A DNA stretch of 64,000 nt from a virus: IMG/VR virus record IMGVR_UViG_3300037606_000137, positions 32,001-96,000 of that record; one strand, 5' to 3'. Positions 29,967-36,677 of this stretch are shown here, one piece after another (position 1 is the stretch's first letter; each line of letters begins with the position of its first letter). The notes below the pieces were generated by a model. The model was not told the origin of the DNA and did no database searches. It saw only the letters and a program-made list of their open reading frames with translations. Both the position numbers and the translations under genes were made by a program.

Positions 29967-30452
29967 ATGGAGAGTAATTATACTGATTGTTTACAATATA
30001 TACCAGATTTAAAAAAATATGTTAAAAAATGTGTAGGCGGAAGTGAATGGGAAGATGTTGTACAAGATACATTGTTATATTTATTTTTAAAGTATGATAA
30101 TATTAATGTTACAAATGTTAAAGGTTTATTAATAAATACATCACTATTTTTTATAAAAAAACATTTATCATATAATAGTAAAGTAAATACGTGTGAAATT
30201 AATGATACAAATATTATTATAGATTATAATAATGCAAATATTAAAATTGGAAAATATAATTCTATTTTAATAGATGATACATTATTTAATAATATTAATA
30301 GAGTATCAAAATCTTTATTTATACCATTCCAAATGCAATTAAATGGTAAATCTATAGAAAGTATAGCTAAAGTATTAAAAATAAATGAAAACACTATTAA
30401 AACACGAATAAGACGGTGTAAGTCTGTATTAAGAGAAAATATAATATTATGA
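29967..30452 (+). CDS. ECF-like sigma factor
   Basis: EDVVQDT; SIAKVLKINENTIKTRIRR. Confidence 0.75.
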   Translation: MESNYTDCLQYIPDLKKYVKKCVGGSEWEDVVQDTLLYLFLKYDNINVTNVKGLLINTSLFFIKKHLSYNSKVNTCEINDTNIIIDYNNANIKIGKYNSILIDDTLFNNINRVSKSLFIPFQMQLNGKSIESIAKVLKINENTIKTRIRRCKSVLRENIIL

Positions 30453-31342
30453 ATAATAAATTAAAATTAGATGATCGTATGAAACAATACGAACATATTA
30501 ATAGAAACTATTTAATTCCTAACATGTATAATGTTATTCGTTTAGATGGTAAAGCTTTTCATACATATACAAAGCAATTTATTAAACCATTTGATGATGT
30601 ATTTATTAATGCAATGAATGAAACTGCAAAATATATATGTGAAACAATGCAAGGTGCAAAATTTGCTTTTGTACAAAGTGATGAAATATCTATATATTTT
30701 ACAGATACTGATAACCATGAACAACAATTATGGTTTGGTGGTAATATACAAAAAATAGTATCAGTAGCAGCATCTAAAGCAGCAGCAAAATTTAACCAAA
30801 TTATATTTTTACATAATTCAAAATCTACAATAGAAGAATTACAACAACTACAATTAGCCGAATTTGATGCTCGCGTTTTTCAATTACCAAACAAACATGA
30901 ATTATTAAATTGTTTTATTTGGAGACAAGAAGATTGTATTAGAAATAGTGTATCTACTGTAGCACAATATTTTTATTCTACAAAAGAATTACATAAAAAA
31001 ACAGTAAAAGATATGAAAACTATGCTACTTGAAAGTGGTAGAGCATGGGAAAATTATAATTCAAAATATAAAAATGGTAGATTTATTTCTAAAGAAATTT
31101 ATATAAATGATATTTTAGTTGGTGATAATGAAACAGAAATTCGGTACCAACCAGATAATGAAGGTATTTTTAAATCTAAATATGGTAGAGCATTACAATT
31201 AAACACGTCTGAAAATGATGAAATTGATTGGTGTGATATTAAAATTAAAAAAATGAGATCTTTTTGGAATATTTCTAATGCTAATATATTTTTAAACGTT
31301 AGAGAAACATTAATAAAAAAATATTTTCATAATGATAAATAA
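30449..31342 (+). CDS. thg1: tRNA(His) guanylyltransferase, Thg1-like
   Basis: RMKQYE, IRLDGKAFHTYT, QSDEIS, FDARV, WRQ.D..RNS. Confidence 0.92.
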   Translation: MNNKLKLDDRMKQYEHINRNYLIPNMYNVIRLDGKAFHTYTKQFIKPFDDVFINAMNETAKYICETMQGAKFAFVQSDEISIYFTDTDNHEQQLWFGGNIQKIVSVAASKAAAKFNQIIFLHNSKSTIEELQQLQLAEFDARVFQLPNKHELLNCFIWRQEDCIRNSVSTVAQYFYSTKELHKKTVKDMKTMLLESGRAWENYNSKYKNGRFISKEIYINDILVGDNETEIRYQPDNEGIFKSKYGRALQLNTSENDEIDWCDIKIKKMRSFWNISNANIFLNVRETLIKKYFHNDK

Positions 31343-32072: not shown

Positions 32073-32477
32073 ATGGACGTTTTCCTTGGTGGTACATGTA
32101 ATAATTCTGAATGGAGAGATGAATTAATACCTTTATTAAATTGTGATTATTTTAATCCTGTTGTAGATGATTGGACAGAAGATGCACAAAAATTAGAATT
32201 ACAAAAACGCATAGAATGTGATTTTGTGCTTTATGTAATAACACCAAAAATGACTGGTGTGTATTCATTAGTCGAAGCTACAGATGATTCAAATAAGAGA
32301 CCACAAAGAACTATATTTTGTGTTCTTACAAATGATGATGGTAACGAATTTACAGAATCACAATTAAAGTCATTAGAAATGACAAAAAATTTAATTAGAA
32401 ATAATAATGCTAGAGTTTTTGATACGTTACAAGATATTGCAAGTTTTTTAAATTATATGAATTTGGTACCAAATTAA
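32073..32477 (+). CDS. Nucleoside 2-deoxyribosyltransferase-like protein
   Basis: VFLGGT..S.WR..FNP.V.DW..E; S..E. Confidence 0.75.
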   Translation: MDVFLGGTCNNSEWRDELIPLLNCDYFNPVVDDWTEDAQKLELQKRIECDFVLYVITPKMTGVYSLVEATDDSNKRPQRTIFCVLTNDDGNEFTESQLKSLEMTKNLIRNNNARVFDTLQDIASFLNYMNLVPN

Positions 32478-32544: not shown

Positions 32545-32715
32545 ATGGACAAGAATCAAATTTTTACAGAATTAGAAACATTATGGGAAGCATTTAAAGC
32601 AGAACATGAATCAACAAAGAAAATTGCAGGTGGTAGAGCTAGAAAAGCAATTGGTGAAATGAAAAAATTAGTTACACCTTACCGTCAAGCATCTGTTGAA
32701 GCAGGAAAATTATAA
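32545..32715 (+). CDS. Histone H1-like (Hc1-family) small protein, 56 aa, absent from the ORF track
   Basis: KKIAGGRARKAIGEMKKLVTPYRQASVE resembles the Bacteroidota Hc1-like motif. Confidence 0.7.
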   Translation: MDKNQIFTELETLWEAFKAEHESTKKIAGGRARKAIGEMKKLVTPYRQASVEAGKL

Positions 32716-32811
32716 AAAATAAATAAAAATTTTTATATATCAAAATAAATTCTTATATTTGTTTTGTAAAAGTAAAAAGGGAAGAAAAAAAATTAATATA
32801 TACAATTAAGA

Positions 32812-32904
32812 ATGAAAAATTTATCAAACATATTAGTGGATCGTTATTATGATCGTGAACCGGAGAGATTACTTGGGACTAACAATGTTATGTGTAAATT
32901 TTAA
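32812..32904 (+). CDS. Putative attenuator leader peptide MKNLSNILVDRYYDREPERLLGTNNVMCKF
   Basis: Lies between promoter motifs (32754-32761, 32794-32802) and the terminator; contains GGGACT complementary to the terminator 5' arm. Confidence 0.65.
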   Translation: MKNLSNILVDRYYDREPERLLGTNNVMCKF

Positions 32905-32941
32905 TTATTAAAAAGATATTAAATTTTTAAACAAATAACTG

Positions 32942-32971
32942 AAAAGTCCCTTAGCAATAAGGGACTTTTTT
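32942..32971 (+). terminator. Intrinsic terminator (attenuator) 14 nt before tRNA-Glu
   Basis: AAAAGTCCCTTA-GCAA-TAAGGGACTTTTTT. Confidence 0.85.
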
Positions 32972-32985
32972 ATTTTAAATCATAT

Positions 32986-33057
32986 GCTCCTATCGTCTAA
33001 CGGTCAGGACTCTACCTTTTCAAGGTAGCAATGAGAGTTCGATTCTCTCTGGGAGTA
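32986..33057 (+). tRNA. tRNA-Glu(TTC)
   Basis: Cloverleaf; CTACC-TTTTCAA-GGTAG. Confidence 0.92.
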
Positions 33058-33139
33058 CAAAAAATAAATTGTAGTGTACAATAGGTGAAATTTGTATATG
33101 AATGGTAAGACAGCTCGAGACTGTATTTATTTTTTTTAA

Positions 33140-33219
33140 CTAGATGCTTGAGCAGTTGGTTGAACTCGCCTGTTTTGGGAACAGGAGCATTTGCGTAGGT
33201 TCGAATCCTACCATCTAGA
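33140..33219 (+). tRNA. tRNA-Pro(TGG)
   Basis: CTAGATG/CATCTAG acceptor; CCTGT-TTTGGGA-ACAGG. Confidence 0.88.
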
Positions 33220-33415
33220 CATAAATTATTGATAACAAACAAGTTACAATAAAAAATATATTTACTAGTAATGTTTAGTAAATTAAAGATAATAGTTGGA
33301 TAATGAAAATATGAGCTGTAACTTGTATAATAGTAATTATAAGCTAGAATATAGAAATGATATAATATTTAAGTATTATTACAGTAAGAAAGAATTAAAT
33401 TGAATTGAAGTATTT

Positions 33416-33490
33416 TTTATGTGTGGTGTAATTGGATAGGCACGCTTGCGTTGAGTGAGTAGATTATTGGTTCGAATCCAATACATGAAA
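33416..33490 (+). ncRNA. tRNA-like RNA with 5-nt anticodon loop
   Basis: GTGT..GCAC D arm, CTTGC-GTTGA-GTGAG, ATTGG-TTCGAAT-CCAAT. Confidence 0.6.
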
Positions 33491-33500
33491 CAAAAAATAA

Positions 33501-33571
33501 GGTCCATTGGTGAAATGGTATCATGACTCACTGTCTATGAGTTGTCGTCGGATCGTAACCGGCATGGACCG
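33501..33571 (+). tRNA. tRNA-Asp(GTC), atypical T loop
   Basis: ACTCA-CTGTCTA-TGAGT; G73. Confidence 0.85.
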
Positions 33572-33597
33572 CTAAAGAAACAAAAATAATAAAATAA

Positions 33598-33670
33598 GGT
33601 CCTGTAGCACAATTGGTAGTGTAACTTGTTGTCTGCGAGATGGTTGACGGTTCGAATCCGTTCAGGACCG
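33598..33670 (+). tRNA. tRNA-Asp(GTC), second copy
   Basis: GGTCCTG/CAGGACC-G; loop TTGTCTG. Confidence 0.8.
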
Positions 33671-33736
33671 CAATAAACTGAGTTAGTGTACTACAAGTTC
33701 GAAACTTGTGATCTTGACAAAAAAAAATTAAAAAAG

Positions 33737-33826
33737 ATGAAAAAAATAATAGTAAATAAAAATGTAATGATAAGTGTAAGAAATATTTCTTATTCATATT
33801 ATTATAACTTATTGAAATCTCAATGA
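33737..33826 (+). CDS. Putative Tyr-rich attenuator leader peptide MKKIIVNKNVMISVRNISYSYYYNLLKSQ
   Basis: Four TAT codons at 33791-33805; the stop overlaps an antiterminator segment. Confidence 0.7.
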   Translation: MKKIIVNKNVMISVRNISYSYYYNLLKSQ

Positions 33827-33853
33827 GACTGAAATTGTATTTTAACAAATTTT

Positions 33854-33886
33854 AAGTCCTATTGAGAAATCAGTAGGACTTTTTTT
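33854..33886 (+). terminator. Intrinsic terminator (attenuator) immediately before tRNA-Tyr
   Basis: AAGTCCTATTGA-GAAA-TCAGTAGGACTTTTTTT. Confidence 0.85.
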
Positions 33887-33890
33887 ATAA

Positions 33891-34565
33891 CCGACAGTAT
33901 GCAAGTGGTTAAAGCAGGGGGATTGTAAATCCTGTTACAGTCAATTCGAATTTAATATATAAAGATAAAAAACTATATATGTGTGATTTGAAAAAATGTG
34001 AAAATTGTGATAACGATCATAATGGTGATTATGGAAGTGGAAGATTCTGTTCGAATAAATGTGCTAGAGGATTCTCAACCAAAAATAAACGAAAAGAAAT
34101 AAATAAAAAAGTAAGTAATACATTACAGTTAAAATTAAATAATGGATTAACAACACAACAAGTAATACAAAAAAAATATGCAGCTAAACACGCTTCTTAT
34201 ATTAGAGAAACTGAAATAACTACATTATATGATTTAAGTACACGTACAATAAGTAAAATATTAAAAAGATTAAAATTACCATGTTCATTATGTAAATGGT
34301 ATGTTGAAGATGTTGTTGGTGATTTACATCATATAATAGAAAGAAAAAATGGTGGTTCAAACAATCATGATAATTTAACATATGTATGTCCTAATTGTCA
34401 TAGATTAATTCATTCTAATAAAATAGATAATAGTAAAATAATAAATCTTAAAGATTATATTGGTGACGAATGGAAAAAATATTATTATGTAATCAATAAA
34501 AAATTAATAAACAAATAATTTGTTCTCTTCGGAGTTCGTAAGTTCAAATCTTACCTGTCGGACCA
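33891..34565 (+). tRNA. tRNA-Tyr(GTA) split by an insertion (5' part 33891-33936, 3' part 34525-34565 with encoded CCA)
   Basis: CCGACAG pairs with CTGTCGG-ACCA; loop TTGTAAA; CTC-TTCG-GAG variable arm; GTAAG-TTCAAAT-CTTAC. Confidence 0.85.
33979..34518 (+). CDS. HNH endonuclease inserted in tRNA-Tyr
   Basis: C..C..GSGRFCSNKCA; DLHHII....GGSN...NLTYVCPNCHRLIH. Confidence 0.88.
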   Translation: MCDLKKCENCDNDHNGDYGSGRFCSNKCARGFSTKNKRKEINKKVSNTLQLKLNNGLTTQQVIQKKYAAKHASYIRETEITTLYDLSTRTISKILKRLKLPCSLCKWYVEDVVGDLHHIIERKNGGSNNHDNLTYVCPNCHRLIHSNKIDNSKIINLKDYIGDEWKKYYYVINKKLINK

Positions 34566-35762: not shown

Positions 35763-36677
35763 ATGAATATTAAAAATATTGATGTTAGTAAAATTTCAGA
35801 TTTAATTTTATTAACAAAAGATTTAAGAAATTTCAAAAGTGAAATTGTATTAAAAGCAAAATTAGAAGCAATAAACAATTTTTTTAAAACACATAATTTA
35901 GATTCTTGTGTTTTAGGTTTATCTGGTGGTATAGATTCATCAGTTGTTTTAATGTTATTATTAGAAGCATCAAAATTATCAGAATCACCAATTAAAAAAG
36001 TGATTGGTGCATTTATGCCAATTTATTCTCAAGGTATTACTGGACAAGATGCTGCTAATGTATATGTAAATCAATTATTATTATTTCTTGCAGAAAGTTA
36101 TAGTGTATTTAATTATAGAAAAATAGATTTAAGTATAGTTTCAAACGAATATAGTAAAACATTAAATATACGTGATAAACGAACAGTTGGACAAATTGAT
36201 TCTATTATTAGAACACCTGCAATGTATGGTCTTGCTGCTGATTTACAATATAGAAATTTTAAATCTATTGTTGTAGGAACTACAAATAGAGATGAAGGTG
36301 CATATATCGGATTTTATGGTAAAGCAAGTGATGGAATGAATGATCTTCAACCAATTGCTGATTTACATAAATCAGAAGTTATTGAATTAGCAAAATTGTT
36401 AAACATTGATAAACATATTATAAATCGTCCACCAATGGGTGATGTTTGGGATGGATCATTAGATGAAGATACAATTGGTGCACCTTATTGGGCATTAGAA
36501 ATGTATCAAATACTTATGGAATTTAATGCAACATACTTAATTAATAGAGTTACAAATTGTCCAGAATTAATCAAATATGTATTAAATATAGAATCAATTC
36601 ATAATATAAATGCTCATAAATATATGGTTGGTTCTCCAAGTCATTATATCGATGTAATGAATAGAAAAATAAAATAA
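35763..36677 (+). CDS. nadE: NH3-dependent NAD+ synthetase
   Basis: LGLSGGIDSSV; GTTNRDE; DG..D.QPIADLHKSEV. Confidence 0.9.
   Translation: MNIKNIDVSKISDLILLTKDLRNFKSEIVLKAKLEAINNFFKTHNLDSCVLGLSGGIDSSVVLMLLLEASKLSESPIKKVIGAFMPIYSQGITGQDAANVYVNQLLLFLAESYSVFNYRKIDLSIVSNEYSKTLNIRDKRTVGQIDSIIRTPAMYGLAADLQYRNFKSIVVGTTNRDEGAYIGFYGKASDGMNDLQPIADLHKSEVIELAKLLNIDKHIINRPPMGDVWDGSLDEDTIGAPYWALEMYQILMEFNATYLINRVTNCPELIKYVLNIESIHNINAHKYMVGSPSHYIDVMNRKIK

Follow-up and report, generated by a model that had tools for sequence, protein, structure and literature searches.

Unit B, a short leader reading frame placed between a promoter motif and the intrinsic terminator of a tRNA cluster, is probably a working attenuator of the ribosome-mediated (leader-peptide) kind, controlling transcription of a phage tRNA operon. 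That this phage and its group use such attenuators at all can be stated with greater confidence. Judged from sequence, the strongest support for the attenuator reading lies outside unit B: units A and C of the same genome and a comparable unit in the phage L005 carry most of the weight. The window, that is, the whole stretch of 64,000 nucleotides analysed in this paper, comprises bases 32001-96000 of the 110-kb IMG/VR virus record IMGVR_UViG_3300037606_000137, which was assembled from a salt-lake metagenome, and its GC content is about 23%. It is 28% complete according to CheckV and thus represents only part of a very large uncultured phage. Positions refer to the window unless another locus is named.

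Genomic setting and anatomy of unit B

The protein-coding genes around the tRNA operon include the following.

30449-31342: Thg1-type tRNA-His guanylyltransferase, 1.5 kb upstream of the tRNA operon
32073-32477: PF15891 nucleoside deoxyribosyltransferase-like protein
32545-32715: Hc1 histone-like protein
35763-36677: NAD synthase

The closest relatives of the PF15891 protein, found in Logan contigs, are 73-78% identical to it. A weak match to sigma-70 region 4 is seen at 29967-30452. With this and the Thg1 gene, the phage has additional functions in tRNA maturation and transcription.

The elements of unit B, including the helices P1 to P4 of its leader RNA, are as follows.

32754-32761, plus strand: promoter -7 box TATATTTG, of the Bacteroidota sigma-A type TAnnTTTG
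32812-32904, plus strand: leader reading frame B, with ATG, 30 sense codons and TAA
32815-32825, pairing with 32892-32902, plus strand: P1, outer helix joining the first codons of the frame to the last
32833-32837, plus strand: 5' strand of P2 (TTAGT), pairing with ACTAA at 32878-32882; part of the protector
32839-32865, plus strand: control codons D-R-Y-Y-D-R-E-P-E (GAT CGT TAT TAT GAT CGT GAA CCG GAG)
32839-32854, plus strand: P3, hairpin of GATCGT, loop TATT and ATGATC, built from the first control codons
32860-32877, plus strand: P4, hairpin of CC.GAG with CTT.GG and a 6-nt loop, sequestering the first bases of region 2
32875-32880, plus strand: region 2, the antiterminator strand GGGACT, complementary to 32945-32950
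32941-32970, plus strand: intrinsic terminator (regions 3 and 4), with 13 pairs, a 4-nt loop and a T run

Transcription would start at about 32768. The TAnnTTTG element is the -7 consensus of Bacteroidota sigma-A (PMC9723704, PMC7366714), and in Flavobacterium, where such promoters are the norm, strong clues for leader-peptide attenuation before amino-acid operons have been described (PMC9723704). The motif TATATTTGT is over-represented, with 18 copies in the window for 7.6 expected, and its orientation tracks gene direction. Because this over-represented motif fits the TAnnTTTG consensus, the host is likely a member of the Bacteroidota. Boxes of the TATATTTG type are also present upstream of unit A and of the two unit B homologs, L002 and L128. 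L128 has two tandem copies of its promoter region, a segment of about 60 nt that contains the TATATTTG box, upstream of the leader (6650-6790). A sigma-70 promoter for unit B was rejected, as the number of matches, 44, was close to the 36.7 expected from shuffled sequence.

The start context of leader frame B is A-rich, and the frame would be translated from its ATG. A preliminary description of this DNA had pointed out a 30-codon leader with the residues D-R-Y-Y-D-R-E-P-E-R, and a GGGACT hexamer complementary to AGTCCC in a strong terminator just before tRNA-Glu. Both observations hold: the residues are encoded at 32839-32868, AGTCCC lies at 32945-32950, and a second GGGACT is present at 32961-32966, the last two both inside the terminator. 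The stop codon, placed there about 22 nt past the antiterminator, does lie beyond GGGACT, although the exact distance is 21 nt. The coordinate 32754, with which that description opened, is the first base of the -7 box. The hexamer is not explained by chance: counting both strands, GGGACT occurs 3 times in 64 kb, each time within unit B. When the frame is paired with the 5' arm of the terminator, the best duplex exceeds those of 99.2% of random segments from the same genome. The terminator ends 15 nt before tRNA-Glu, and there is no room for another promoter between the two. Downstream, the following genes were found.

32986-33058, plus strand: tRNA-Glu (TTC), by ARAGORN
33140-33220, plus strand: tRNA-Pro (TGG), by ARAGORN
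33501-33572, plus strand: tRNA-Asp (GTC), by ARAGORN
33598-33671, plus strand: second copy of tRNA-Asp (GTC), by ARAGORN
33891-34565, plus strand: tRNA-Tyr (GTA) with a 594-nt insertion, by ARAGORN with introns allowed
33979-34518: HNH endonuclease frame within the tRNA-Tyr insertion, by Pfam HNH

As had been claimed, the cluster covers every control residue except Arg: 7 of the 9 control codons are cognate to the downstream Asp, Tyr, Glu and Pro tRNAs. If tRNA-Tyr, which has a gate of its own (unit C), is left out, only 5 of 9 match the sub-cluster of unit B. Tyr can reasonably be counted for unit B, since unit C lacks its own promoter and relies on transcription that has passed through unit B. 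For neither of the two CGT (Arg) codons is a cognate tRNA present, whether in the cluster or elsewhere in the 110-kb record; the first sits in the P3 stem, and the second is the Tyr codon TAT in L128. The suggestion that decayed Arg tRNA genes occupy gaps in the cluster was not borne out, as none were found there by relaxed ARAGORN or Rfam searches.

Several other observations concern the cluster itself. A tRNA-Gln (TTG) reported by ARAGORN at 33416-33491 is doubtful or degenerate, since the Rfam tRNA model gave no match to it in a small search with E as permissive as 10. Just before tRNA-Pro (33100-33135), a 13-codon frame enters a short hairpin with a T run, which is too weak to count as another gate. 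The insertion in tRNA-Tyr lies between the anticodon stem and the variable arm and not in the anticodon loop, the usual position of group I introns in bacterial tRNAs, and no group I intron was found in it by Rfam. In L128 the orthologous tRNA-Tyr lacks any insertion; L002 has a homologous HNH frame immediately after tRNA-Glu. If the insertion is not spliced out, unit C gates a broken gene.

Conservation and folding of the leader RNA

Homologs were sought through the neighbouring PF15891 protein, which gave 161 loci. Two of these have unit B: L002, the only real homolog from viral contigs, and L128, from metagenome contigs. Identity of the neighbour protein at these loci is about 51-65%. L002 has the same -7 box, a 31-codon frame with one 3-nt indel relative to the window, a 27-nt control core identical base for base, and an identical motif CTTGGGACT; 15 nt past its terminator follow tRNA-Pro and tRNA-Glu. 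L128 has a 36-codon frame (an 18-nt length difference) and a terminator quite different from that of the window, and its core is the same save for the sixth codon, CGT to TAT. In this locus Pro, Asp, Glu, Asp and Glu tRNAs come first, and behind them stand a homolog of the Tyr gate and the uninterrupted tRNA-Tyr; 8 of 9 core codons are cognate to downstream tRNAs. Short contigs of a further relative were found in run X2, from another salt-lake study. One covers 32839-32908; the P4 loop there has two 1-nt indels that together leave the frame intact, and apart from a substitution no other difference is reported. Among the sequencing runs listed for this DNA, none is an RNA run. Scans of genome contigs for unit B homologs were empty, and in the cultured-phage collection no homolog was found by blastn of the region or tblastn of leaders B and C. 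The candidates L163-L167 and L169 were discarded as chance matches in unrelated coding DNA. Full unit B homologs number only three, so the counts of covarying pairs are small. At 4113-5590 of L002, the PF15891 gene is followed by about 270 codons of open frame on the reverse strand, beyond which the C-terminal half of PF15891 recurs; the arrangement resembles an insertion accompanied by partial duplication, the inserted element being possibly a mobile endonuclease gene.

Within the conserved core, 12 of 12 codons are identical between the window and L002 (baseline 0.71 per codon, p ~0.017), including codons that are rare in this phage (CCG 6%, GAG 6%, CTT 5%, GGG 4%). This identity indicates constraint at the RNA level as well as at the codon level. 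Outside the core, substitutions between the two are mostly non-synonymous, with start, frame and stop retained, which fits a frame that must be read and whose product is of little importance.

The pairing of region 2 with the terminator is conserved by position. In the window, in L002 and in L128, positions +10 to +15 counted from the GAG codon hold a hexamer that pairs with the GC core in the 5' arm of the terminator. In L002 the terminator has the same stem core, with compensatory changes next to the loop, and the GGGACT-AGTCCC pairing is lengthened to 8 bp. In L128 the same frame position holds TCAGGT, which matches GCCTGA in that locus's own terminator arm. Only about 0.15% of L128 hexamers could pair in this way with at least 3 G-C pairs (chance ~0.0015). 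As the position of the hexamer is fixed by homology, the covariation of the 2:3 helix is regarded as real. The L128 terminator falls out of register in three-way alignments, and the 'broken' pairs seen there are alignment artefacts. Taken singly, the units give modest duplex p-values, from 0.008 to 0.2. Those for L128 unit B (0.09), L005 unit D (0.20) and L128 unit C (0.02) are noisy, as is the mask modelling of these units, and in L128 unit C the best duplex differs from the duplex spanning the stop codon.

The leader region is more strongly folded than shuffled sequence, with z-scores of -4.1 for the window and -6.5 for L002, and the two fold independently into one common shape comprising P1 to P4. 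Between them, P1 shows one compensatory and one half-compensatory pair, and P2 shows a compensatory change to TCAGT/ACTGA in L002. All three homologs can form P3, in L128 with G-U in place of one G-C pair. The stems of P4, which join the Pro and Glu codons to CTTGG, are invariant, and its loop is different in every homolog. Because GGGACT is divided between P4 and P2, it would be hidden unless these helices are opened. The preliminary description had noted, given the position of the stop, that a protector helix might be needed; P2 and P4, both conserved, supply one.

The exact nucleotide conservation of the core would equally suit a protein- or RNA-binding site. It could be supposed that a protein or a tRNA binds the 27-nt core directly, as in switches of the T-box or PyrR type, and that the frame is incidental; the core is indeed invariant rather than covarying, and an alternative pairing with the terminator is present. 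No Rfam family reached its gathering score in the unit B region, however, and no T-box (RF00230; specifier loop and T-box sequence) was matched in the Rfam search even at lenient E-values. The sub-threshold matches to BTnc231, Phe_leader, RefA9, PyrR and PyrG_leader were taken as chance hits driven by the terminator. Moreover, the frame survives the 3-nt indel in L002 and the length difference in L128, and the sister units share the design and codon content of unit B but not its core sequence. Direct binding is considered very unlikely on these grounds.

A folding model with a ribosome mask was then applied. The transcript was cut just before the 3' arm of the terminator, and 27 nt around the P site (P-12 to P+14) were masked; the model is one of equilibrium thermodynamics, with kinetics and transcription-translation coupling assumed. 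In L002 the probability of the 2:3 pairing, P(2:3), is 0.3-0.9 for every P-site position as far as the Pro codon, and is then 0 through the stop. Without a ribosome it is 0.01 in L002, the values for unit B being 0.00-0.01. The window shows the same boundary with lower values, 0.04-0.79, which are low at most control codons. The antiterminator helix of the window has only 6 bp, against 13 bp in the terminator, and a non-conserved pairing of the 5' UTR competes with it. This pairing, of AAGGGA with the terminator arm, was discounted, for it competes in the window model but is missing from L002. In unit C, P(2:3) stays at 0.98 until the P site has passed the last Tyr codon and then drops to 0. 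It can be seen that in units A, B and C and in L002 the modelled boundary falls directly after the last control codon, and that the conserved core ends exactly where, in the model, a stall ceases to be productive. The switch is thermodynamically feasible, and according to the model the antiterminator can form only with a ribosome on the control codons and not once it is at the stop.

Sister units and control sets

Two further units were identified in the same genome. Their elements are as follows.

33737-33826, plus strand: leader frame C, the nested Tyr gate, with 29 codons and TGA, and Y-S-Y-Y-Y at 33791-33805
33808-33815 and 33818-33830, plus strand: region 1 and region 2 of unit C, region 2 spanning the stop codon
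33854-33881, plus strand: terminator of unit C, 10 nt before tRNA-Tyr
L168 3080 to 2936, minus strand: leader and terminator of unit A, about 3 kb before the window

Unit C (33737-33881) has the four regions of an attenuator: region 1 pairs with region 2, and region 2 pairs at 12 of 13 positions with 33855-33867. Four of the five codons in its Tyr run are cognate to the gated tRNA. Its homolog in L128 has the same Tyr run and a different terminator, with a matching region 2. The Tyr-specific gate that had been proposed as nested with unit B is therefore real, and is present in L128 also.

Unit A, whose locus (L168 2848-3200, minus strand) corresponds to G000:C1:28848-29200, is the cleanest case in this genome. 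Its promoter type and first codons are as in unit B, and they lead into a run of 15 consecutive codons, all 15 of them codons for Lys, Asn, Phe, His or Trp. Beginning 15 nt past the terminator, the tRNAs that follow are CCA(A), Asn (GTT), Phe (GAA), His (GTG), Lys and Lys (TTT). A GGCTCAG segment of the unit is complementary to its own terminator arm. Among 717 small frames (15-60 codons) in the 110-kb record this run is unique, the next best being 7. The tRNA at L168 2848-2921 (minus strand) has an 8-nt anticodon loop, in which ARAGORN reads CCAA as a four-base anticodon; although shaped like a quadruplet decoder, it is probably specific for Trp. In the 184-kb phage L005, 14 of 15 consecutive leader codons of unit D are cognate to the eight-tRNA cluster behind it (Cys, Pro, Ser(TGA), Tyr, Arg(ACG), Gln, His, Ser(GCT)), and the leader uses both Ser codon boxes.

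Control sets were compared with these units. The 110-kb record has 28 terminator-like hairpins, and only 3 of them are located 10-16 nt before a tRNA; these belong to units A, B and C, and each follows a leader frame. By comparison, none of 25 tRNA blocks from other phage loci is preceded by a frame that matches it, the best score being 4/10. Some ungated tRNAs, such as tRNA-Glu of L005 and the Met tRNA in L168, have their own promoters. The matrix of leaders against clusters is diagonal, and the true pairing is the best of all 24 permutations; the unit B leader scores fairly well against the L005 cluster also.

These comparisons bear on whether unit B could be a coincidence, in which an unrelated short frame merely adjoins the terminator of upstream genes. 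The DNA is AT-rich and, as the number of small frames counted above shows, rich in such frames, and the control window had been picked after the fact in the preliminary description. Set against this, the unit is conserved in three phages with a covarying 2:3 pairing, the leader-cluster matrix is diagonal, the run of unit A is unique and the control tRNA blocks are negative. A chance arrangement is accordingly held to be extremely improbable.

A fixed, leaky terminator behind a small gene or a structured RNA deserves more weight. There would then be constant partial read-through and no codon sensing, and the product would be the 30-residue peptide, or a stable RNA freed by RNase P cleavage at tRNA-Glu. 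In phage T4, small stable RNAs are co-transcribed with tRNAs, which speaks for such an arrangement. So do the own promoter and strong terminator of unit B, its highly structured RNA, the binding-site-like conservation of the core at the nucleotide level and the weakness of a 6-bp antiterminator. It would leave unexplained why the frames of units A and C and of L005 consist almost entirely of the amino acids of the downstream tRNAs, why hexamer and terminator arm covary in L128, and why each control run ends exactly where region 2 would start to be covered by a stalled ribosome. In addition, the peptide varies freely outside the core while its frame is kept, unlike a functional small protein. 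This explanation is judged unlikely, though less so than the two others.

For the attenuator reading, then, the anatomy, conservation, covariation, protector, geometry and sister units all favour the original proposal of an OR-gate attenuator that induces the tRNA operon, whereas the Arg codons are left unexplained by it.

Proposed mechanism, known systems and implications

In the proposed mechanism, transcription would begin at the TATATTTG promoter, and the 30-codon leader would be translated on the nascent RNA, with translation coupled to transcription. When no ribosome is present, P1 to P4 would bury GGGACT, the terminator would form, and transcription would stop 15 nt before tRNA-Glu. When the Asp, Tyr, Glu, Pro (and Arg) codons at 32839-32865 are decoded slowly, a stalled ribosome would keep the 5' strands of P2-P4 open. 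The GGGACT freed by the stall could then pair with AGTCCC as it emerges from the polymerase, and formation of the terminator would be delayed. Read-through would extend into tRNA-Glu, tRNA-Pro and the two tRNA-Asp genes, and on to the second gate before tRNA-Tyr. Under fast decoding the ribosome would reach the stop, P2 to P4 would re-form behind it, and termination would follow. The outcome would be a negative feedback in which tRNAs are supplied on demand, one slow codon class being enough to open the gate. It counts against this scheme that extra tRNA is of no help if the amino acid, and not the tRNA, is limiting.

The mechanism itself is classical leader-peptide attenuation. The ilvGMEDA leader senses Ile, Val and Leu, the thr leader senses Thr and Ile, and starvation for any one of them relieves termination. 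These leaders share with the phage units a translated, multi-amino-acid leader, the 1:2, 2:3 and 3:4 pairings and an intrinsic terminator. They differ in that they regulate biosynthetic enzymes, whereas the phage units would regulate tRNA genes. Furthermore, the phage leaders list up to seven amino acids, one-to-one with the tRNA genes behind them, and have a promoter and start context of the Bacteroidota type. In unit B, a ribosome at the stop leaves region 2 uncovered, and the re-formed protector would do its work instead. Unit C is a near-exact copy of the E. coli trpL design, with control codons directly before region 1 and the stop in region 2, but its control codons are for Tyr, the gated gene is one tRNA-Tyr, and the unit is nested in the operon gated by unit B. 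The pheM leader of pheST also provides attenuation of a gene of the translation apparatus by sensing the decoding speed of cognate codons. The target of pheM, however, is a synthetase for one amino acid, and the phage product is the tRNA itself, which would make a direct feedback loop. T-box elements likewise sense tRNA status and switch a terminator and antiterminator before translation-related genes, but they bind uncharged tRNA directly, without a ribosome, and unit B has no T-box match. A full-text literature search found no description of leader-peptide attenuation of tRNA genes, of its occurrence in phages, or of a leader that lists a tRNA set. What is apparently new is therefore the use of the mechanism on phage tRNA genes.

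For decades it has been debated whether phage tRNA genes serve codon compensation or escape from tRNA-cleaving defences (PMC10264068, PMC11555353). It is tentatively suggested, and seems possible rather than probable, that the leaders serve as a surveillance circuit for tRNA-attacking host defences, each gate watching the codon classes whose tRNAs lie behind it. If so, host tRNA cleavage, for example by anticodon nucleases, would turn on replacement tRNAs within one round of leader translation, and the nesting of unit C in unit B would give tRNA-specific fine control. If the attenuator reading is true, phages tune tRNA output to decoding demand, and these units offer a handle for testing which demand matters. 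Attenuation would then extend from amino-acid operons and one synthetase operon to tRNA genes, to phages and to signals of the Bacteroidota type. A single leader reading up to seven amino acids would represent a compact, many-input OR logic. Leader frames could also predict the tRNA genes of one regulatory block in the genomes of uncultured phages.
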